The position numbers and the translations under genes are program-made. Shown here in pieces: positions 29,551-43,330 of a stretch of DNA of 64,000 bases. The notes below the pieces were generated by a model. It saw nothing but the letters and a program-made list of their open reading frames with translations. It searched no databases and was not told the DNA's origin. How positions within the stretch are numbered: position 1 is the stretch's first letter; each line of letters opens with the position of its first letter. This stretch comes from Octopus vulgaris (taxonomy: Eukaryota), in assembly GCA_951406725.2 (NCBI GenBank), contig OX597816.1, forward strand, positions 144,584,001 to 144,648,000, written 5' to 3'.

Positions 29551-29975
29551 TATATAAAACACTAAGTCCACTCTGCTGAGTGGTTGGTGTTAGGAAGGGC
29601 ATCCAGATGTAAAAATCATACCAAAACAGTTGCAGAAGTCTGATGCAGGCTTCTACCTGGCTAACTCCTGTTAAACTGTCCCACCCATGCCAGCATGGAA
29701 AGCAGATGTTAAACTATGATGAGGATGATGGTGATGCTGATATGTATATACGAGTGTATACACACACACACACAAAAATACATATGTACGACTGTATTTT
29801 AGATTGTTTTCTTATTTTTTTTAGAGAAACTGAAATATGTTTTTTGATTTTCAATTTATAATTGCTTAATTTAGAAGTTATTATATTCTGTAAAATGTTT
29901 CTTAGCAAATTGCTACCCATTTGTCAAGAAATAATGAAAGTGGGAATAATCATAACTTTTCTATCTGTTTTATAG

Positions 29976-30326
29976 GAGATTATTTGGTATTTCATAGTAA
30001 CTACAATGCAGTGAATAGAAACTCCCTGATATCACCTTTCATTGATATTCCATTGTCGAATGCCAAAGTTACATTTTATTACTACATGCCTGGGATTGCA
30101 AATGGTGAGCTACAAGTACGGTTTGTGGAGGAAGGACTTGAAAAATGGTCTACTAAAACACCATATTTCTGGCAAGATTTTGGAGACCATGGAACTAAAT
30201 GGCAATATGGTTGCATGAATCTACCAAGTAAAAGAGGAAGAATCGTATTTATTGGCTTTTCTGGAAGGTCAAAAACTTCTAAAATGGCTCTTGATGATAT
30301 TATCATTGCCGAAGGTCTTTGTCAGA
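29976..30326 (+). CDS. Exon 8: MAM domain 2 remainder
   Basis: GDYLVF..LISP..VTFYYYMPG..GELQV..DHGTKW..MALDDIII..C. TAG/GTAAGT, phases 1 and 1. Confidence 0.93.
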
Positions 30327-30585
30327 GTAAGTAGATTTGATTTCTATCTTTACAAGTGATGTTTGGGTTTTACTTTCTCAAAGTATTTTATATCTGTGTT
30401 GTATTTTTTTGAAAATTTTCTCATATTTCATTTAAGTAAGTTTAATTCTTTTCTCAGATCTTTATACTTTCACTGCTAGGAAAACTTTGAAAATAGCTGT
30501 TTGCTCAGGGCTGACCCAGGCTTAACAACAATATATATCATCTATTCACAACGCATGTTTGTGCTTACATGTCTTTTGTGCTTAT

Positions 30586-30815
30586 ACTCTTTACTCTTTT
30601 ACCTGTTTCAGTCATTTGACTGTGGCTATACTGGAGCACCGCCTTTAGTCGAGCAAATCGATCCCAGGACTTATTCTTTGTAAGCCTGGTACTTATTCTA
30701 TTGGTCTCTTTTGCCGAACTGCTAAGTTACAGGGATGTAAACACACCAGCATCGGTTGTCAAGCGATGTTGGTGGGGACAACCACAGACACAAAAACATA
30801 CACACACGCATGCAC

Positions 30816-30874
<59 letters not shown>

Positions 30875-31033
30875 TATGATGAGCTTCTTTCAGTTTCCGT
30901 CTACCAAATCCACTCACAAGGCTTTGGTCGACCTGAGGCTATAGTAGAAGACACTTGCCCAAGGTGCCAAGCAGTGGGACTGAACCCAGAACCATGTGGT
31001 TGATAAACAAGCTACTTACCACACAGCCACTCC
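30586..31033 (-). mobile_element. SINE family A copy
   Basis: Reverse complement of the family A sequence. Confidence 0.85.
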
Positions 31034-33071
31034 ATTTTGTCTGTCTTTATGTTCTGAGTTTAAATTTCACCAAGGTCGACCTTGCCTTTCATCTTTTCTG
31101 GGTTGATAAATTAAGTACCAGTCAAGTGCTGGGGTCAATGTAATTGACTATCCCCCTCCCCACAAATTCCAGGCCTTGTGTCTATAGTAGAAAGGATTAT
31201 TATTATTAGTAGTAAGGCAGTGAGCAAGCAGAATTGTTAGCACACCGGGCAAAATGCTTAGTGGTGTTTTGTGTGCCTTCACGTTCTGAATTCAAATTTC
31301 GACTTTACCTTTCATCCTTTCAGAGTTGATAAATTGAGTATCAGTGAAACACTGGGGTTGATGTAATCAACTAGTCCTCCCCTCACAAATTTGAGGCCTT
31401 GTGTCTTCAGCAGAAAAGATTATAATTATTATTATTAGCAGTAGTAGTTATATTGGTGGTGATGTAGAAGCAGTAGTGTATCATTATTTAATACTTGATA
31501 TATATTGATAGATTTCAGTTCAATTTAATTTTTTATCATTGTTATTCTTTAGCCCCTAACGAAGCTTGGTTAAGTAACCCTATGTTCAAGATGTTCAGGC
31601 CATAGTCATCCCATCTTCTATTCAGACATTGATGCATGTTGAACTACATTATTCGATGTGTCTTTCATTTTCCTTGATAGTCAGGTGTGGTTTGAGGGAG
31701 ATTTTTCTCCTACTTCTAGCCAGGTTGAGTGACTACATACAGGCTCTCACACTTGTGTAATGAGATTGACACTAGTAGAGATTGAATTTGCTTTTTATTT
31801 GTCCAGTGTTACTAAAATAAGTACCATTCGTATATTAGTTTGATCTAATCAACTGTTTGCAGCTTCAGAATTTGTGGCCTTCTGCCTACATAACAAATCA
31901 ATGTATTGTCATTTGAACAATTAAAATTAAATTAAATTCAGTTGAAGAACATAAAACTTTTTAATGACACAGTTGTCATCATGTGTTTCATTTATTTGCT
32001 TTTGTTTTTTCTGATTTAACTTCATAACATTATTTCGTTTTTGGATTTGGTTTGCAAGATTCTTTATATGAGTTCGTGTGTTGAAGCATATTCTGTTGTG
32101 TCTAGGGAGAGTCATTTTCTTTTTGTGCCTTACAATATAACACAACAGTACATAACATTATTTTTTTGCTAAAGTACATAGCAAAAGAGTTTGTGGGAAG
32201 AAACCACCTGTTTTTTTGAATACGTAATGTTACACATTTTTCAACAGGAACACCTGATGCTTTCAATCATTTTCTAAACACTGAAACATTTTTTTTAATG
32301 ACTTTTGTATTATTAATGTATAATCTCTATAGAGCATGATGCAGTTACTTCATACAAAAATTGTGATGATTATGATGGTAATGATGGTAGTGGTGGTGGT
32401 GGTGGTGGTGATTGCTTGAGTGAATGTGGATTTTGTGGTTGTTTTGTCATGGTTTGTTTTCCAGTTGCTAATTTGAACAGGGGGCGCAGCTCCTCCTGTA
32501 AACCTGTAGTTTTCTGCTAATTAGGGCTTCAATGCCTCTTCGTTCTCAAAACAGATCATTACTTGCACAGCCACAATCATCTAGGAAATATACATGAAGT
32601 ATATAAAAAAATGTAAAAAGAGAAATATATAAAAAACAGAAAAAAAAAAATATAAACAATATATATGTACATACACATTATTGGATGGTCGTTGACTATT
32701 CATGAGTTCTTCCACTCTTTGCTGGGGTTAAATCTTATTTTCTATCAGGTACATGGACCCTGAAACAAGCACTTGAGAAGAAACTAGATAGTGCATGCAC
32801 TAAAATACTTAGGGTTGCACAAAATATAAACTGGTAGATGGTAGGGATGGAGCAAATTCAATATTGCAAAGGACTAACTATTTTACAGTGCTTAGCAAAA
32901 ATTCTCTGCATTTAATTTCAAATTACTGTTGAAACAAAACAGATTTTCTTCCCTCTGGAGTTATAATAGGTAGGAGTTGTACACTGAAGTTGAGCCATTC
33001 AGTTACAAATCTCTTTAATAAATTTTGATAATTCTACCATTGTAAGAAAATGTTATTATTTTATATTGTAG

Positions 33072-33230
33072 CTGGGATCATAAATAACGTGTGCACCTTT
33101 GACAACCCATTACTTTGTAAATACATAATTACTTGTATGAACCCCATTGAATACACGTGGAGAAGGATTATTGGAGGAACACCAACAAATGGAACAGGAC
33201 CTGACACTGACAATTCAAATAGTAAAGATG
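33072..33230 (+). CDS. Exon 9: MAM domain 3 start
   Basis: CTFDNPLLCKY..WRR..GGTPTNGTGPDTD..G. TAG/GTAAAT, phases 1 and 1. Confidence 0.93.
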
Positions 33231-34204
33231 GTAAATTGTTTTTGTTTTGGTTAACTTCTTTTTTAATGCAAAATTTGTAATCCGATAAATTTTATAATGG
33301 ACTTTCTCTGTACAAAAAAAAAAAAATACAGGCTGAACAACCAAACAAATGGTTACTGTTTTACTCTGTATCACGCGGTATTCTTGTAATGTTTATGACT
33401 AAGACATTTTTTACAAACATCCTGATTACCTAGCTGCATATAAAAGTTTCATCCTGTTCACTGGTATAACAGCAGGATTATTGTAAAATTGATGAGTATT
33501 TTGTTAGTTTATGGCAAACTCTATGACCAATACTTTGTATGTGTATATAACTTAGAGAGGGAGGGAGACAGCTCCATTTGATCAACTTACCCTGAAGTTC
33601 TTTATGATTATGAATTTAACTACTCCTTATTGTAAATATAACAACCATAACTTAATATTTAATAGTTTATTGGTAGGTAATGATGTTCAAATGTTAATAT
33701 AACTGTTAAAAACTACTATCATAATTTTTGATATTTTTTAGATAAAACTTTATAGTTCAGGTAAAAACATTAGCCATATAAAAAGGTAAGTAGTCTATTA
33801 CCAAGAGTGTAAATTAATTCATTCATTTCTCATCCAGCTGAGAAGGTTCTTGATCAGGTCAGGTCAGGTATAATCAGATATGCTGCTGCAATGCATTGAT
33901 GCACATACCATTTGTTGGTATTTGTTTGGGTTGTACCAAGCAGTGTCCCAGTCAGTCCCCATCTCTGCAAGATACTACCTCATCCACTATGACTTGTGTG
34001 TGGTCAACTAGCATAAGCCATCACCCCAGATGGATCTTCAGAGAAGAGAACACAGTATGCAGAATCCAGTATACATATACATATATGAAAATTCTGTTAA
34101 TACATACCTACGTACATACATACATACATACACATACATACATACATACATACATACATATGACGCTAATTGATGATGATGATGATGATACATATATATA
34201 TAAA

Positions 34205-34538
34205 AAGGGTAAAGGCCCCCTTCGGTCATGAGTGACCATGGGTTTGCACCTAGAGAGTTACCCTCTGAGGCACAAGTCTGGGCAAGGTTTTTTTATGGAA
34301 GACCAGTAGTCGCCCATGCATACCGGCCTCCCCTCTCCACGCCACCAAGGGAAAGACAAAGGTCGATACAGCTTGGCACCTGTGACGTCGCAACTCATTT
34401 CTACAGCTGAGTGAACTGGAGCAATGTGAAATAAAGTGTCTTGCTCAAGAACACAACACGCAGCCCGGTCCGGGATTCGAGCTCACAACCTCACGATTGT
34501 AAGCTTGACGCTCTAACCACTGAGCCATGCGCCTTCAC
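34205..34538 (-). mobile_element. tRNA-derived SINE (family D)
   Basis: Minus strand GGCGCATGGCTCAGTGGTTAGAGC (A box), GCTCGAATCCCGG (B box) and GTTCTTGAGCAAGACACTT core. Confidence 0.85.
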
Positions 34539-34562
34539 ATATATATATATATATATATATAT

Positions 34563-37500
34563 AAAATAAATATAAGAGAGTGGTCACTATATGGCTCACT
34601 CTAGCACCAGTTAATCCAAAAGGTTTCAACCACAAAAATACATGTTTCCCATGAAAGTCAGTACGATTGTTAGCTCACACGGACAGGGCAAATAAAAAAT
34701 AACAAATACAGATTATTTTGGGACAATTGTTTCGCTATTAATGAATTAAATGTAATTTTACTTACAATAAAATCCACTTGTAGCTCTTCAGCCAAAACTA
34801 TCTGGATGAAATCCACTCAATCACACGCCAGATTTTACCATAACGATAAATACGCGTGTGGTTCAATTGATTACATCCGACGTTATAATTCAAATGCCCC
34901 AACTAACAGCGCGCCAAATTTTCACGGAAAACAAATACAGCATTTAGAAATAAATGCAGCATAATTATAATTAATTAATAAGGGTGAGAGAATTAGATAC
35001 TAATTTAATAGTATATCTATTCTACACCAAGTGGCCTAGTGCTCCGAGAAACCTGGATTATTATAATATTTTATAATATATTATAATATTTTTACAAAAT
35101 AAATATAAGAGAGTGGTCACTATATGGCTCACTCTAGCACCAGTTAATCCAAAAGGTTTCAACCACAAAAATACATGTTTCCCATGAAAGTCAGTACGAT
35201 TGTTAGCTCACACGGACAGGGCAAATAAAAAATAACAAATACAGATTATTTTGGGACAATTGTTTCGCTATTAATGAATTAAATGTAATTTTACTTACAA
35301 TAAAATCCACTTGTAGCTCTTCAGCCAAAACTATCTGGATGAAATCCACTCAATCACACGCCAGATTTTACCATAACGATAAATACGCGTGTGGTTCAAT
35401 TGATTACATCCGACGTTATAATTCAAATGCCCCAACTAACAGCGCGCCAAATTTTCACGGAAAACAAATACAGCATTTAGAAATAAATGCAGCATAATTA
35501 TAATTAATTAATAAGGGTGAGAGAATTAGATACTAATTTAATAGTATATCTATTCTACACCAAGTGGCCTAGTGCTCCGAGAAACCTGGATTATTATAAT
35601 ATTTTATAATATATTATAATATTTTTACAAAATAAATATAAGAGAGTGGTCACTATATGGCTCACTCTAGCACCAGTTAATCCAAAAGGTTTCAACCACA
35701 AAAATACATGTTTCCCATGAAAGTCAGTACGATTGTTAGCTCACACGGACAGGGCAAATAAAAAATAACAAATACAGATTATTTTGGGACAATTGTTTCG
35801 CTATTAATGAATTAAATGTAATTTTACTTACAATAAAATCCACTTGTAGCTCTTCAGCCAAAACTATCTGGATGAAATCCACTCAATCACACGCCAGATT
35901 TTACCATAACGATAAATACGCGTGTGGTTCAATTGATTACATCCGACGTTATAATTCAAATGCCCCAACTAACAGCGCGCCAAATTTTCACGGAAAACAA
36001 ATACAGCATTTAGAAATAAATGCAGCATAATTATAATTAATTAATAAGGGTGAGAGAATTAGATACTAATTTAATAGTATATCTATTCTACACCAAGTGG
36101 CCTAGTGCTCCGAGAAACCTGGATTATTATAATATTTTATAATATATTATAATATTTTTACAAAATAAATATAAGAGAGTGGTCACTATATGGCTCACTC
36201 TAGCACCAGTTAATCCAAAAGGTTTCAACCACAAAAATACATGTTTCCCATGAAAGTCAGTACGATTGTTAGCTCACACGGACAGGGCAAATAAAAAATA
36301 ACAAATACAGATTATTTTGGGACAATTGCTTCGCTATTAATGAATTAAATGTAATTTTACTTACAATAAAATCCACTTGTAGCTCTTCAGCCAAAACTAT
36401 CTGGATGAAATCCACTCAATCACACGCCAGATTTTACCATAACGATAAATACGCGTGTGGTTCAATTGATTACATCCGACGTTATAATTCAAATGCCCCA
36501 ACTAACAGCGCGCCAAATTTTCACGGAAAACAAATACAGCATTTAGAAATAAATGCAGCATAATTATAATTAATTAATAAGGGTGAGAGAATTAGATACT
36601 AATTTAATAGTATATCTATTCTACACCAAGTGGCCTAGTGCTCCGAGAAACCTGGATTATTATAATATTTTATAATATATTATAATATTTTTACAAAATA
36701 AATATAAGAGAGTGGTCACTATATGGCTCACTCTAGCACCAGTTAATCCAAAAGGTTTCAACCACAAAAATACATGTTTCCCATGAAAGTCAGTACGATT
36801 GTTAGCTCACACGGACAGGGCAAATAAAAAATAACAAATACAGATTATTTTGGGACAATTGTTTCGCTATTAATGAATTAAATGTAATTTTACTTACAAT
36901 AAAATCCACTTGTAGCTCTTCAGCCAAAACTATCTGGATGAAATCCACTCAATCACACGCCAGATTTTACCATAACGATAAATACGCGTGTGGTTCAATT
37001 GATTACATCCGACGTTATAATTCAAATGCCCCAACTAACAGCGCGCCAAATTTTCACGGAAAACAAATACAGCATTTAGAAATAAATGCAGCATAATTAT
37101 AATTAATTAATAAGGGTGAGAGAATTAGATACTAATTTAATAGTATATCTATTCTACACCAAGTGGCCTAGTGCTCCGAGAAACCTGGATTATTATAATA
37201 TTTTATAATATATTATAATATTTTTACAAAATAAATATAAGAGAGTGGTCACTATATGGCTCACTCTAGCACCAGTTAATCCAAAAGGTTTCAACCACAA
37301 AAATACATGTTTCCCATGAAAGTCAGTACGATTGTTAGCTCACACGGACAGGGCAAATAAAAAATAACAAATACAGATTATTTTGGGACAATTGTTTCGC
37401 TATTAATGAATTAAATGTAATTTTACTTACAATAAAATCCACTTGTAGCTCTTCAGCCAAAACTATCTGGATGAAATCCACTCAATCACACGCCAGATTT

Positions 37501-38883
37501 TACCATAACGATAAATACGCGTGTGGTTCAATTGATTACATCCGACGTTATAATTCAAATGCCCCAACTAACAGCGCGCCAAATTTTCACGGAAAACAAA
37601 TACAGCATTTAGAAATAAATGCAGCATAATTATAATTAATTAATAAGGGTGAGAGAATTAGATACTAATTTAATAGTATATCTATTCTACACCAAGTGGC
37701 CTAGTGCTCCGAGAAACCTGGATTATTATAATATTTTATAATATATTATAATATTTTTACAAAATAAATATAAGAGAGTGGTCACTATATGGCTCACTCT
37801 AGCACCAGTTAATCCAAAAGGTTTCAACCACAAAAATACATGTTTCCCAAGAAAGTCAGTACGATTGTTAGCTCACACGGACAGGGCAAATAAAAAATAA
37901 CAAATACAGATTATTTTGGGACAATTGCTTCGCTATTAATGAATTAAATGTAATTTTACTTACAATAAAATCCACTTGTAGCTCTTCAGCCAAAACTATC
38001 TGGATGAAATCCACTCAATCACACGCCAGATTTTACCATAACGATAAATACGCGTGTGGTTCAATTGATTACATCCGACGTTATAATTCAAATGCCCCAA
38101 CTAACAGCGTGCCAAATTTTCACGGAAAACAAATACAGCATTTAGAAATAAATGCAGCATAATTATAATTAATTAATAAGGGTGAGAGAATTAGATACTA
38201 ATTTAATAGTATATCTATTCTACACCAAGTGGCCTAGTGCTCCGAGAAACCTGGATTATTATAATATTTTATAATATATTATAATATTTTTACAAAATAA
38301 ATATAAGAGAGTGGTCACTATATGGCTCACTCTAGCACCAGTTAATCCAAAAGGTTTCAACCACAAAAATACATGTTTCCCATGAAAGTCAGTACGATTG
38401 TTAGCTCACACGGACAGGGCAAATAAAAAATAACAAATACAGATTATTTTGGGACAATTGTTTCGCTATTAATGAATTAAATGTAATTTTACTTACAATA
38501 AAATCCACTTGTAGTTCTTCAGCCAAAACTATCTGGATGAAATCCACTCAATCACACGCCAGATTTTACCATAACGATAAATACGCGTGTGGTTCAATTG
38601 ATTACATCCGACGTTATAATTCAAATGCCCCAACTAACAGCGCGCCAAATTTTCACGGAAAACAAATACAGCATTTAGAAATAAATGCAGCATAATTATA
38701 ATTAATTAATAAGGGTGAGAGAATTAGATACTAATTTAATAGTATATCTATTCTACACCAAGTGGCCTAGTGCTCCGAGAAACCTGGATTATTATAATAT
38801 TTTATAATATATTATAATATTTTTACAAAATAAATATAAGAGAGTGGTCACTATATGGCTCACTCTAGCACCAGTTAATCCAA
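34563..38883 (-). repeat. Tandem array of 8 complete 533-bp units plus a 57-bp partial unit; hammerhead-containing, retrozyme/Penelope-like
   Basis: Units start at 34563, 35096, 35629, 36162, 36695, 37228, 37761, 38294 and 38827, an exact 533-bp period. Only a handful of substitutions. No ORF of 60 aa or more in the track. Confidence 0.97.
34711..34802 (-). ncRNA. Type I hammerhead ribozyme, unit 1 (repeated at 35244, 35777, 36310, 36843, 37376, 37909 and 38442)
   Basis: Minus strand GATAGTTTTGG-CTGAAGA-GCTA-(43 nt)-TAGC-GAAAC-AATT-GTC-CCAAAATAATC. Full core, all three helices pair. Confidence 0.9.
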
Positions 38884-39400
38884 TGCATTTATTTCTAAAT
38901 GCTGTATTTGTTTTCCGTGAAAATTTGGCGCGCTGTTAGTTGGGGCATTTGAATTATAACGTCGGATGTAATCAATTGAACCACACGCGTATTTATCGTT
39001 ATGGTAAAATCTGGCGTGTGATTGAGTGGATTTCATCCAGATAGTTTTGGCTGAAGAGCTACAAGTGGATTTTATTGTAAGTAAAATTACATTTAATTCA
39101 TTAATAGCGAAACAATTGTCCCAAAATAATCTGTATTTGTTATTTTTTATTTGCCCTGTCCGTGTGAGCTAACAATCGTACTGACTTTCATGGGAAACAT
39201 GTATTTTTGTGGTTGAAACCTTTTGGATTAACTGGTGCTAGAGTGAGCCATATAGTGACCACTCTCTTATATTTATTTTGTAAAAATATTATAATATATT
39301 ATAAAATATTATAATAATCCAGGTTTCTCGGAGCACTAGGTCACTTGGTGTAGAATAGATATACTATTAAATTAGTATCTAATTCTCTCACCCTTATTAA

Positions 39401-39409
<9 letters not shown>
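38884..39409 (+). repeat. Inverted, circularly permuted copy of the 533-bp unit (526 bp)
   Basis: Reverse complement of the unit starting at TGCATTTATTTCTAAATGC. It crosses the unit junction near 39280 and ends in (TA)n. Confidence 0.97.
39040..39131 (+). ncRNA. Type I hammerhead ribozyme on the host-gene sense strand
   Basis: CTGAAGA 39051-39057, GCTA/TAGC helix II, GAAAC 39109-39113, GTC 39118-39120, TTTTGG/CCAAAA helix I. Confidence 0.9.
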
Positions 39410-39437
<28 letters not shown>

Positions 39438-39904
39438 CATTCAATAAATAATAATTATTACAAGGTTAAAGCTGATAAACAATCACAGTGTATTGGCTAA
39501 AGAAAATAGTCTAATAGTGGGACATATAAGCTCTCGATGGCAAAAAGTGGGTATTAGTATACATGGAAACATATTAATGTTAACATGCTGCCCCCTCAAA
39601 ATAAGGGTAGATGAATATTGCAAAGCTGTGACATGAGGAGATATTAATAAATTGGGTATAGCTGATCATGTGTGGAAAAATGGAGACCACCTCCCCCTGT
39701 GGGATGAAGTTAAAATAATAGACAGAGAATACCACTGAAAAAGACGAAAACTAAAAGAAGCAGCGCAACAACCCCCTAAGCAGACACAACAACCTCCTAA
39801 GCATACTGCGCACAGATATGAGCAGCATATGGGAACTGGTATTAAGGAAGGATAGGAAAATATTAGATTTATAAGCCCTAAAATTGACTCCATAATTGCC
39901 CACA

Positions 39905-39974
39905 GGCATATGGCATAGTGGTTAAGAGTATGGGCTACTAACCCCAAAATTCCCAGTTAGATTCCAGGCAGTGG

Positions 39975-40016
<42 letters not shown>

Positions 40017-40200
40017 TGATGATGATGATGACATCGAAAAATACCTTAGGAATGAGAACCCAGGTTCGAAATTTCCTCAAGACACCAGATGTGGCTGGAG
40101 GGTATATCAGCTGAAACGTGTTAACAACAAACAAGATGAGGACAAATATTCGTCAAATGTAAATAATGTACATAATAGCTCATCTCTTAAATATAAAACT
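39905..40200 (+). mobile_element. tRNA-like SINE head, (AAT)n/(GAT)n and a repeat tail with a decayed hammerhead-like motif
   Basis: TGGCATAGTGGTTAAG A box. ACAC-CAGATGT-GGCTG...CAGCT-GAAAC-GTGT at 40082-40121. Confidence 0.5.
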
Positions 40201-40744
40201 GTAATATTAATGTTTGTTTTTATGTCATAATAACAACTATTTTACTTTAATTTGAAGGATTACTCAATACATTTGGTAGGGTATAAATTTATTATTTTTT
40301 AACAAGAATAGTATTGATAGTGACATTGAAATTTTGGCCAGTTAAGCCATCAGTGGACTGTAATGAATATTTTCTAGAATCTGACCAACAACTTTAAACC
40401 TACCTACATACTCTTGCGAACATTAAAACATTTGACTTAAAAATTTTCCATGCTAGCAACACTGTGACATGCTTAAGTGATAACCAACACACCTCTCAAT
40501 ATAAACAGGCAAAAAAAACTATAAAGAGTACCAACCTGCTAACTCATGTAACAAATGTTATAACAAATGTGATAAAGAGATCAAATTCAACCAAATTCAT
40601 CAAGAAAACTCAATAATCATATTTTCCTTTGTTTTGTTTTCCTTTTTTTAATAATTGCTTGAAAATTAAATTATTCTCAGTTTAAGTGTGTATATTTTAA
40701 TATATTAAAAATTTAGTTACCATTTAAAATTTCATGTTAACAAT

Positions 40745-41045
40745 GTTGTTTGTTCCTTCTTGAGCCATGCCTGGCTCATAAAGGTTTCCCGGTTTCATTA
40801 GTATATAGTTTCCCTACCTGAATGGGATGCCAGTCCATCACAGGTGAGCTACTAGATGCAGGAGGAAAGGGTGAAAGGAAGTTGTAATGAAAGCGTGAGC
40901 AGAAGTTTGCCATTACCATCTGTCGGAGCCGCATGGAGCTTTGGTTTTGCACTCATAAACACACACATCACTTGGTCTGAGATTCAAACCCACAATTCCT
41001 TGACTGGAAGTGCACTGCTCTAACCACTTGGCCATGTGCTTCCAC
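40745..41045 (-). mobile_element. tRNA-derived SINE
   Basis: Minus strand TGGCCAAGTGGTTAGAGC (A box) and GGTTTGAATCTC (B box). Confidence 0.7.
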
Positions 41046-41183
41046 TTTTGTTAATAATAGAAAACATTAAATGTAAAATATTTCTTATATATATGTTGAT
41101 CTTTAAATTTAACATTCAGAAATATTGTCTAAATTGTTAATAAATTACTTGTGAATCAATTATTCCATATTTTGTTTTTATAG

Positions 41184-41513
41184 GATTCTATATCTATGCA
41201 GAATCTTCTTATGGAAAGCCTAATGATACTGCAGAGTTGAAGTTTCCAGTTTCTAATGTCAAAGAAAAAAGTCTGAAGTTTGCTTATAGTATGCATGGAA
41301 GTGGAATTGGACAATTATATGTAAAATTTAAAAATAAATCTGATGAGAAAATAGTATGGAGAATGAAAGGAGACCAAGGATTATATTGGCACAAAGTGTG
41401 TTTATTTATTGAATATGACATAAATGATATCGTCTTCATTGCTGAAAGAGGAGACTCCTACCTGGGAGACATTGCAATAGATAGTGTCTCTGTTGAAATG
41501 AAAGCATGCCCTG
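41184..41513 (+). CDS. Exon 10: MAM domain 3 remainder
   Basis: GFYIYAESS..LKFAYSMHGSGIGQLYV..GDQG..W..GDIAIDSV..C. TAG/GTAATA, phases 1 and 1. Confidence 0.95.
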
Positions 41514-43330
41514 GTAATACTTAAATATTTCGTCTTTACATGTATGTGTATATATAGATATGTGTGTGTGTGTTACTGTCTTGCTTGACATTGTGTAATA
41601 CTTGTAAATGTATGTCACTATCATGCAAGCATTGTCCTTAGTTTCCAATCTTCTGTGAAAAAAATGTCTTGCCATGAAGGAATATTACTTTACTTGGAAA
41701 CAGATGAGGGTTGGTAACAGGAAGGACATATGACCATAAAAATTCTACCTCCATAAATTCCATTTGCCCCATACAAGCATGGATAAATGAACATAAAAAT
41801 GATGATGATGATAAATATTAAGTTCAGTTATTATCATTTTGTATAGTTTGGTGAGCTGTAAGCTTAATCATGTTGACTTGTTCTAAATACACTACATGTA
41901 GTTGAAGTCTTCAAGTGGGGCTTTCCAGATCTAATGGCTTAAGAGACCTACATATATAGCTGGCTTTAGATATAACTTACCATTACCAGTTAACTGTCCA
42001 AAATTGCTATGTAGATATTAAAAATATAACAGTCTCCCTTTATTTTCTCTAGCTAATGCATATGTAAAACCTCAAAAGGGATTAGAATGGTTAGTCTATG
42101 GACTTCATAGGAAAATGTTCAGGATCAGATGAGAGAAATTGTAACAATCAAAACTGAAATTAAAGTCCAGAATTCTAATGGCAGTTGTCTACACTTTTAC
42201 TACATTTATGGTATATTATATTCTTTGTTATAGGAGTATTGAAAATAGATTTAATTCCCTATATTGCTGGTATTACTTTATTGATTCTGGAAGGACATAC
42301 AGCTTATCTGCCAATAGTAGAATATGAAATTGGTACCATGGCATGAACAGTCTTTGTTACTCAAAACTATCATGTTGCTTACAATTTCCACCCAGCATCC
42401 CCTCTCTGCTATCTTTCACCAAGATTACTTTAATTAAATCCTCTTTACCAGAGAACCAACATTCTGAAATTATTTCTTTTCATGGAAGAAATTCTCTTCA
42501 TGAAGAAGAAATGTTGCTATCTAATCTCACCAATCTCAGAGGAGGAGCAAAGATCATAAAGACTTCCACGCATATTGACTAAGCCGTAAAAAAATATAGA
42601 TTCTAAATATCAGAAGTCTTCTTGCTTCTGTTAGCTATGCTACTTTTACTAACATAATTTTGTTATTTGATATTGAAAATTTTAATTTCAGTATGTTGTG
42701 ATAAATGTTATATATTTTGAAAATAAGAAATCTGGAATCCAAAATATACTTTCCTGGGGATTCTGTGAATGTGTATTCAATGTTAAGCTTGTACAAATAG
42801 TTTCCACACTGAATATAGTATTCACATATTTTTTTTAAATATAGAAGAATAAACCCTAGTCTTGCAGGGTCGTGGGTGCTGATGCCAGGTAAAATTACCT
42901 CTGCTGGTGCTATGTAAAAACACCCATGTTTGTGCCACATAAAAGCTTCGTACACTCCAAAAAATGGTTGGCATTAAGAAGAGCATCCAGTCATAGAAAC
43001 CATGCCAAAACAGACAAATGGATGCTGGGCAGCTCTCCAGCTGGCTGGCTTCTGTCAAACCACCCAGTCCATGCCTGCATTGGGAACAAATGTTAAAAGG
43101 TGATGAGGAGGGAAATGAAATATTTTTAAACCTTGCAGTTGCTGTATTTCATTCAGCCTGGAAGGAGAAGGAGAACAATACTTTTCTCTAATATAAATTA
43201 AACAAATCAAATGTTTTACTATAGCAAGCAAAATTTCATAAGAATTTAGCCCATCTGAATTCTCTGCAAAATAGTTCTTGTGAATGTGTATCTAAATCTT
43301 CTCATATAAATTTTTTATAAATTGTTGCAG

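Follow-up and report, generated by a model that had tools for sequence, protein, structure and literature searches.

A young two-armed array of an ORF-less 533-nt hammerhead family in Octopus vulgaris, probably written by a Penelope-type enzyme

Introduction

Metazoan non-LTR retrozymes are described as tandem, ORF-less, low-GC units of 170-400 nt with one type I hammerhead ribozyme each, whose highly self-paired monomers form RNA circles and whose likely helpers are named as Penelope-like elements (PLEs) (Cervera and de la Pena 2020, PMC7229834). A recent preprint with a unit range of 51-972 bp (Li, Clavereau and Pollet 2026, 10.64898/2026.07.22.740005) treats animal retrozymes as non-autonomous PLE derivatives, on the basis of co-occurrence and similarity to pseudo-LTRs (pLTRs), and favours local amplification; only one of the nine dimers tested there cut. 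EN+ PLEs leave partial tandems with an inverted 5′-truncated copy (Craig et al. 2021, PMC8557442; Arkhipova et al. 2013, PMC3846280), and a tail at one end, a bias for microsatellites, two internal RT start sites and the cutting and extension of both strands are also described for them (PMC8557442, PMC3846280, PMC11167929). In vitro, anole Poseidon cuts and extends two strands, with no difference in start site seen between them, and inserts without need of ribozyme cutting (Frangieh et al. 2024, PMC11167929).

Here we describe an insertion in a window of 64,000 nucleotides of Octopus vulgaris DNA that combines traits of retrozymes and of EN+ PLE insertions. The retrozyme class is already known; what the locus contributes is one more family with tighter numbers, and no new system. 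In contrast to EN+ PLEs, the family is ORF-less, has a tail of 131 nt rather than 30-40, and shows a strict one-start-per-end rule, coupled ends and TA-like microhomology at the starts. The searched text of PMC7229834 has no mention of arms in inverted orientation, of two fixed starts or of targeting to (TA)n, and the circles shown there are a prediction for this family. The unit was originally predicted to be long for a metazoan retrozyme; it does exceed the 170-400 nt of PMC7229834, but lies inside the range of the preprint. Its helix II is extended to 51 nt. Contrary to the elements of that preprint, no pLTR similarity was found for it, and its arrays seem to form during insertion.

Results

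The insertion consists of two inverted arms. Arm B (34563..38883, RNA sense on the minus strand) contains eight full 533-bp units at 34564-38827 followed by 56 bp reaching 38883, and arm A (38884..39409, RNA sense on the plus strand) is an inverted 526-bp copy running from unit position 403 to 395. The original prediction of eight head-to-tail units with almost no divergence was therefore correct for arm B, with 99.8% of bases matching at period 533 and 5 differences in total from unit 2, our reference, but it missed the inversion of the last 526 bp. The unit was rightly said to have no ORF, its longest coding potential (frames of at least 90 aa) being a single stop-to-stop frame of 96 aa that matches nothing in Pfam. 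A promoter scan based on bacterial signals, which is uninformative for such DNA, gave no promoter. The RNA 3′ end is at the left in arm B and at the right in arm A, and the 5′-truncated ends meet head to head at 38883..38884 (unit positions 56 and 395) with neither overlap nor extra bases. We infer that the left end of arm B is RT start B (unit position 533/1) and the right end of arm A is RT start A (unit position 403), both being starts common across the family. The 131-nt 'tail' between them (unit 533 to 403) occupies 39279..39409 on the plus strand. The insertion is very young, and its family is many-copy and protein-free.

Both outer ends lie in (TA)n, which the original prediction did not mention: the left tract (34539..34562) abuts arm B and the right tract (39406..39434) overlaps the end of arm A by 4 bases. 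Inside (TA)n any target-site duplication is illegible. TA steps make up at least 70% of the sequence outside 46 of 60 arm starts in a set not selected on TA, in line with the microsatellite targeting of EN+ PLEs. MAM-domain exons on the plus strand lie on either side (29906-30331 and 41144-41521; context span 29906..41521), so the insertion is likely in an intron of what appears to be one gene, with the arm A hammerhead in the sense of this host gene.

The array and its type I hammerhead are real. The motif reads on the minus strand as predicted (unit 1, 34709..34804), recurs every 533 bp and places the predicted cut at 34722/34721, comprising a helix I of 7+5 bp, a C3-A9 core, the extended helix II, and a helix III of 2 bp capped by a tetraloop, a form described for invertebrate HHRs and HHR_Amex2 (PMC7229834); the tetraloop here is the palindromic AAUU. 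Tandem units with one type I hammerhead each are a feature of non-LTR retrozymes. The motif is found in all units, yet it is intact in only six of nine copies, three of the eight in arm B being changed: A15.1 is G in units 4 (36308..36403, minus; position 36329) and 7 (37907-38002, minus; position 37928), and G10.1 is A in unit 8 (38440..38535, minus; position 38515), which disrupts the first pair of helix II. The ninth copy, in arm A (39038..39133, plus), is intact, with a predicted cut after 39120. The Rfam search put forward as a check matched no hammerhead model, neither at the gathering threshold nor with E values allowed up to 10, and the assignment rests on motif, fold and family variation. 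Across family loci C3, G5, A6, A9, A13, A14 and U16.1 are unchanged as the locus majority, while N7 varies (A55, C32 and G13 of 100 loci). The core is not significantly depleted of variable sites (2/14 versus 63/443, p 1.0), nor of transmitted alleles (1/14 versus 75/443, p 0.29).

The monomer folds far better than its shuffles (z -6.2, 0/100 equal), and the circular minimum free energy is -143.9 kcal/mol for the minus strand versus -111.3 for the other. Of 53 segregating alleles at paired sites, 32 preserve the pairing, against 24 expected; the p-value of this test counts each compensated pair on both sides and takes no account of relatedness. Both-sided pair changes (n=3) were equalled by 3 of 500 shuffles, with 0-1 in slid controls; the strongly self-paired monomer thus appears to be under selection, on few double changes and with relatedness left uncontrolled. 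We also considered A-to-I editing or a deaminase signature and rejected it: the strand bias of the first 38 loci was not significant among private variants of 137 loci (A>G 6 versus U>C 6; G>A 20 versus C>U 8, p 0.13). Shared alleles do show a bias (A>G 18 versus 9, p 0.018 uncorrected), which is better explained by G-U tolerance in the minus-strand fold.

The genome holds 1,186 family candidates and 2,141 exact ribozyme-half matches, confirming a dispersed, multi-copy mobile family, as non-LTR retrozymes are. Exact end junctions number 842 for (TA)n-A and 332 for (TA)n-B, with none in reversed controls. The starts of the arms fall at two unit positions, A=403 and B=1, which are fixed and separated by 131 nt, and within an array one unit is followed by the next up to 13 times. 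The loci number more than 800, of which some 140 were read, and 143 element loci were scored for PLE linkage. According to the original prediction, copies always attached to a Penelope ORF would mark the unit as a pLTR. None of the 143 loci has a PLE protein match joined to the truncated end of the arm, the nearest (L208) being 32 nt away but past the (TA)n at the outer end, and no RT plus GIY-YIG ORF between pLTRs, as in an autonomous EN+ PLE, was found. Nor is any sequence common past the truncated end among 50 single-arm loci. Together with the uninterrupted succession of units and the lack of similarity between the unit and all 64 GIY-YIG/PLE stretches fetched, this makes it extremely unlikely that the unit is a mere pLTR of an unsampled autonomous PLE, even if its ends are of PLE type, Xenopus retrozymes resemble pLTRs (10.64898/2026.07.22.740005) and the loci were sampled in part.

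A Neptune-type PLE in the same genome encodes an intact 765-aa RT plus GIY-YIG ORF with a CX4CXXC linker. It is young, with 15 of 16 copies 0.1-0.6% distant from their nearest neighbour, targets (TA)n and has two 3′ ends 38 nt apart. Among 60 copies, all ten resolved two-armed ones carry opposite end classes, which is weak evidence for an end rule because end 1 is six times commoner. Target and end rule are thus like those of the 533-nt family, but there is no sequence in common, in pLTR or tail; its ribozyme is of U3/A8 type and its tail is 38 nt. Scoring covered 150 of the 6,136 GIY-YIG candidates, and the sampling of other PLE families is accordingly thin. The helper of the family is likely a (TA)n-targeting Neptune-type PLE, for which this element is a candidate.

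Our results show that 76 of 79 complete two-armed loci pair an A arm with a B arm, against no A/A, no B/B and three atypical loci. The best-case chance of this under independent choice is 1.2e-17. This is the EN+ PLE footprint of an inverted 5′-truncated copy with a tail at one end. One locus (L088) holds a short possible A/A insertion, and in another (L215) an arm starting at 25 faces a B arm. The fixed starts, the A/B rule and the two-arm architecture are thereby shown for the family. Back-to-back arms from two fixed starts suggest that a Penelope-type enzyme copied one RNA from both ends of the cut DNA, and inverted arms with PLE-type starts tie the family to PLE machinery.

The truncated ends are in part coupled. 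In 19 of 76 two-armed loci they are no more than 30 nt apart (permutation mean 8.7, p 0.0008), as they are in 18 of 55 junction-selected loci (mean 6.0), while in 57 of 76 they are uncoupled; arm lengths are correlated (rho 0.54, p 2e-5) and the arms overlap by 0-6 bases at head-to-head joins. Such an excess of near-palindromic junctions would also be produced if the inverted arm came from fold-back self-priming, proposed for head-to-head PLE copies in the Discussion of PMC3846280, or from later hairpin trimming, and not from a second target-primed RT. Trimming may contribute, as coupled-end loci are slightly more diverged (0.21% versus 0.13%, p 0.053). However, fold-back priming requires the copied arm to be nested in the template arm, and we rejected it since 13 of the 24 loci whose ends lie 4-50 nt apart break this rule. 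Furthermore, either arm can be the longer (A in 43, B in 33), in 19 of 76 loci each arm is longer than one unit, and the use of the other fixed site at the second outer end is left unexplained. We regard this origin of the inverted arm as very unlikely.

The predicted cut site is no stop. Arms cross it 179 times, arm ends at 153-163 number 3 against 3.5 expected, and all 323 scored unit-unit junctions are exact (only junctions with matching flanks were scored). The template of the arms was not cut linear monomers, and template jumping between such monomers was rejected, no base having been gained or lost at these junctions. Moreover, both arms of a locus share a haplotype: divergence is 0.21% between them versus 1.7% between loci, the partner arm is nearest or tied in 37 of 45 cases, locus-private fixed alleles occur in both arms in 12 of 22, and family alleles are consistent across all passes for 487 of 533 and mixed for 46. 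Read-through, shared haplotypes and coupled ends are consistent with a single RNA, likely a circle, that was copied from each of the two DNA ends.

Long arrays are less uniform. Four mutually exclusive unit variants are mixed in both arms of the array L115/L222 (p 0.002), and variants recur without periodicity in the loci L046, L119 and L218 and in the window array. Such mosaicism, unlike the product of one clean circle, calls for template switching or later exchange. Multimeric circles were rejected, as variants lack strict periodicity in 16 long-array stretches. Two-ended PLE priming on the linear multimeric transcript of a genomic array, left uncut, with no circles and with uniformity due to unequal exchange and gene conversion, fits the mosaics, accounts equally well for read-through and exact junctions, and derives coupled ends from a common RNA 5′ end (the 131-nt offset is seen in 14 of 19); uncut RNA is also the main substrate of anole Poseidon (PMC11167929). 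But new alleles would then have to become fixed by some other route in all units of both inverted arms in very young loci, with 12 private alleles and a within-locus discordance of 0.13% to explain, and the succession of variant units along arm A of L115 is absent from arm B. On balance we judge the linear template unlikely.

Discussion

The original prediction of a retrozyme made by reverse transcription of a unit-length RNA is supported for the non-LTR type: the family is dispersed, its ends are fixed, the arms share haplotypes and the variation preserves the structure. But two inverted arms are not a simple concatemer. We think it probable that the window carries a young two-armed (TA)n insertion of an ORF-less 533-nt retrozyme, made by a PLE RT-endonuclease that copied one RNA, probably a ligated circle. 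By analogy with PMC7229834, minus-strand multimers would be transcribed and self-cut after GUC, and a host ligase would close the monomers. A PLE protein, probably a dimer, might then cut both strands of a (TA)n tract, one 3′ end priming at A and the other at B, where each start offers a small AU-rich hairpin and TA-like microhomology. Both RTs would circle the template, for up to 8 or more laps, until the two cDNAs joined head to head, overlapping by 0-6 bases.

In its full form, this model has an RT dimer on a single ribozyme-made 533-nt circle, with obligatory A/B priming and two-ended rolling-circle integration until the copies meet, and occasional switching to sister circles. We advance it tentatively, at somewhat short of an even chance. 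If true, each retrozyme array would be written in one event. How animal retrozymes re-insert, and how the tandem and inverted ends of PLEs arise, are open questions in the field (PMC7229834, PMC8557442, 10.64898/2026.07.22.740005). On these a young ORF-less family of nearly identical members brings countable rules: one start per end, a cut site that is not a stop, and coupled ends. With these rules, a small RNA and an intact candidate enzyme in one genome, the mechanism is testable in vitro.

A two-armed insertion with many relatives in the genome

The tandem array comprises eight 533-bp units (34564-38827) followed by 56 bp more, with 5 differences in total from unit 2, which served as reference. 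The original observation of nearly identical copies, all head to tail, holds for these eight units, but 38884-39409 is an inverted copy of 526 bp that begins at unit position 403 and ends at 395 (unit positions are counted on the + strand, with 34564 as origin). The insertion has (TA)n on either side. As + strand MAM-domain exons flank the site on both sides, it is likely to be intronic. A tRNA-like SINE head (34500-34534, - strand, E 0.32) adjoins the left (TA)n. The stretch 39570-39750 (+) looks like a broken GIY-YIG-like fragment of a Penelope-like element (PLE), and about 40085-40125, 3' of an (AAT)n tract, looks like a decayed second hammerhead-like repeat.

In the 2.8-Gb genome (227 contigs), a DNA search with the unit returned 1,186 candidates, many of the 40 scored being at 99-100%. 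We named A and B the inferred starts of reverse transcription (RT) at unit positions 403 and 533/1. Exact patterns gave at least 2,141 ribozyme halves, at least 842 (TA)n-A junctions and at least 332 (TA)n-B junctions, and reversed-control patterns gave 0 matches. The loci read number 137: besides the window itself, 37 came from the DNA search, 59 via the A junction (the initial 61 hits on contig C1, minus one already sampled and minus L127, which duplicates L072) and a further 40 via the B junction (matches on contigs C1 and C2 in order, minus 9 already sampled). L072 and L127 are identical insertions with identical flanks at two places on C1, reflecting either a segmental duplication or an assembly duplicate. 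The parser classed 79 loci as complete two-armed and 47 as single-armed; 11 were excluded (2 run off the stretch and 9 have extra or complex chains).

Each end of an insertion has its own start site

Starts cluster at 403 in 96 of the 111 A arms and at 533-3 in 106 of the 112 B arms. An A arm is paired with a B arm in 76 of the 79 two-armed loci, one atypical start being present in the other 3, and neither A/A (0) nor B/B (0) pairs were seen; possible exceptions to the rule are L088, a short and ambiguous A/A, and L215. Among long second arms that begin at either site, the loci selected by junction had B at the free end in 37/37 and A in 22/22, two starts 13-15 nt inside being counted as in class. 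Under independent choice this pattern has a chance of at most 1.2e-17.

The arms lie with the RNA 3' ends outward and the 5'-truncated ends meeting. The family thereby matches the footprint of EN+ PLEs, an inverted truncated copy plus a tail at one end, as presented in PMC8557442 and PMC3846280, although the tail measures 131 nt here and 30-40 nt in that footprint. The two-start, two-arm pattern also agrees with anole Poseidon, for which PMC11167929 demonstrates that RT starts at two internal sites and that both strands are extended. Fold-back priming could also generate an inverted arm, but its nesting rule is broken in 13/24.

The predicted hammerhead and the RNA fold

The hammerhead motif first read on the minus strand was found as quoted. 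Its parts are a helix I of 7 + 5 pairs, C3-A9, a helix II extended to 51 nt, G12-A14 and a helix III of 2 pairs with a palindromic tetraloop (standard hammerhead numbering), with a predicted cut between unit positions 159 and 158; the Rfam check that had been proposed gave no match to any hammerhead model. The claim of a hammerhead in every unit stands for the motif, but units 4 and 7 carry A15.1G and unit 8 carries G10.1A, changes that presumably lower ribozyme activity. N7 of the core has three common states, and U4C in L086 is the sole core allele fixed across passes; this CCGA variant is mosaic in L119. Core variability was not significantly reduced relative to the rest of the unit (p 1.0 and 0.29).

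The monomer folds with z = -6.2, and the circular fold is better for the minus strand (-143.9) than for the plus strand (-111.3). Pairing is kept by 32/53 segregating alleles at paired sites (24 expected). Among 30 distinct units, 3/157 pairs are altered on both sides, a count matched in 3/500 shuffles and compared with 0-1 in slid controls, the structure itself being derived from the sequences tested. One of the three lies in helix I, and the same pair is a C-A mismatch in 11/30 units.

Template of the insertions

Cut linear monomers were rejected as template. Indeed, the 163 arms of the junction-selected sets pass through the cut site 179 times in total, and only 3 of these arms end at 153-163 (3.5 expected); of the junctions scored, 323/323 are exact. 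Because the cut site is crossed freely and the junctions are exact, the template consisted of circles or uncut multimers. Divergence is 0.21% between arms of one locus versus 1.7% between loci, 12/22 private fixed alleles are present in both arms, and 487/533 allele checks are concordant. This haplotype, common to the arms of one locus, suggests that the same single unit was traversed repeatedly.

Furthermore, the two ends of one insertion are coupled: they lie at most 30 nt apart in 19/76 two-armed loci (permutation 8.7, p 0.0008), 2 of the 19 having an AT-rich palindrome that makes end positions uncertain, arm lengths differ by about 131 in 13/55 (3.2 expected), and the lengths of the two arms correlate (rho 0.54). 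Three observations count against one clean circle: ends are uncoupled in 57/76, divergence is slightly higher at coupled loci (p 0.053), and several of the long arrays show a mosaic of variants with no periodicity. In L115/L222, both arms contain four mutually exclusive variants (p 0.002). Variants specific to one locus reappear in units that are not adjacent (L115/L222, L046, L119, L218 and window units 4 and 7), and two unrelated loci are mosaic for T409G, which lies within start site A; template switching, an RT hot spot or later exchange may account for this recurrence. On balance, the RNA template was probably a circle, and an uncut multimer, which would also be read across the cut site, seems unlikely.

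A candidate helper

Among the 150 of 6,136 candidates scored in a GIY-YIG search, we found a young PLE family with an intact 765-aa RT + GIY-YIG ORF. Its CX4CXXC linker is a mark of Neptune or Nematis according to PMC8557442. This PLE targets (TA)n and has two 3' ends 38 nt apart, with 109 and 639 exact end junctions; opposite end classes occur in 10/10 resolved two-armed copies (60 read, within 1.5 kb). No sequence common to this PLE and the 533-bp unit was found, and the proposed search for copies joined to a Penelope ORF yielded no PLE match joined to a truncated end of an arm at any of 143 element loci. The unit is therefore not shown as the pseudo-LTR of any element, and the Neptune-type PLE is a candidate helper, that is, a proposed source of the enzyme copying the retrozyme RNA.

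The same PLE (L158-L177, for example L161:2104-5771) has an upstream 466-aa frame that overlaps the RT frame in another phase, is open in 3/7 copies reaching it and has no credible match in Pfam. Its 3' end carries a motif that resembles a hammerhead and has a U3/A8 core. At L208:6440-6649, a Neptune-type GIY-YIG relic and a retrozyme insertion lie on one and the same (TA)n tract.

Standing of the family and its host gene

PMC7229834 and 10.64898/2026.07.22.740005 describe non-LTR retrozymes together with their circles, and regard PLEs as likely helpers. We found no paper on the 533-nt family or the one-start-per-end rule in the open-access literature on retrozymes, octopus hammerheads and PLE priming; Figures S6/S9 of PMC7229834, the tables of 10.64898/2026.07.22.740005 or Repbase/Dfam may hold cephalopod families. 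Within this literature, the 533-nt family is new; its class, the non-LTR retrozyme, is already known. There is good genomic evidence that its insertions would arise by PLE-type two-ended priming on one RNA. In the window, 38884-39409 would add an intact hammerhead, as well as an inverted repeat of 526 bp, to the pre-mRNA of the host gene, and could possibly affect its splicing or editing.
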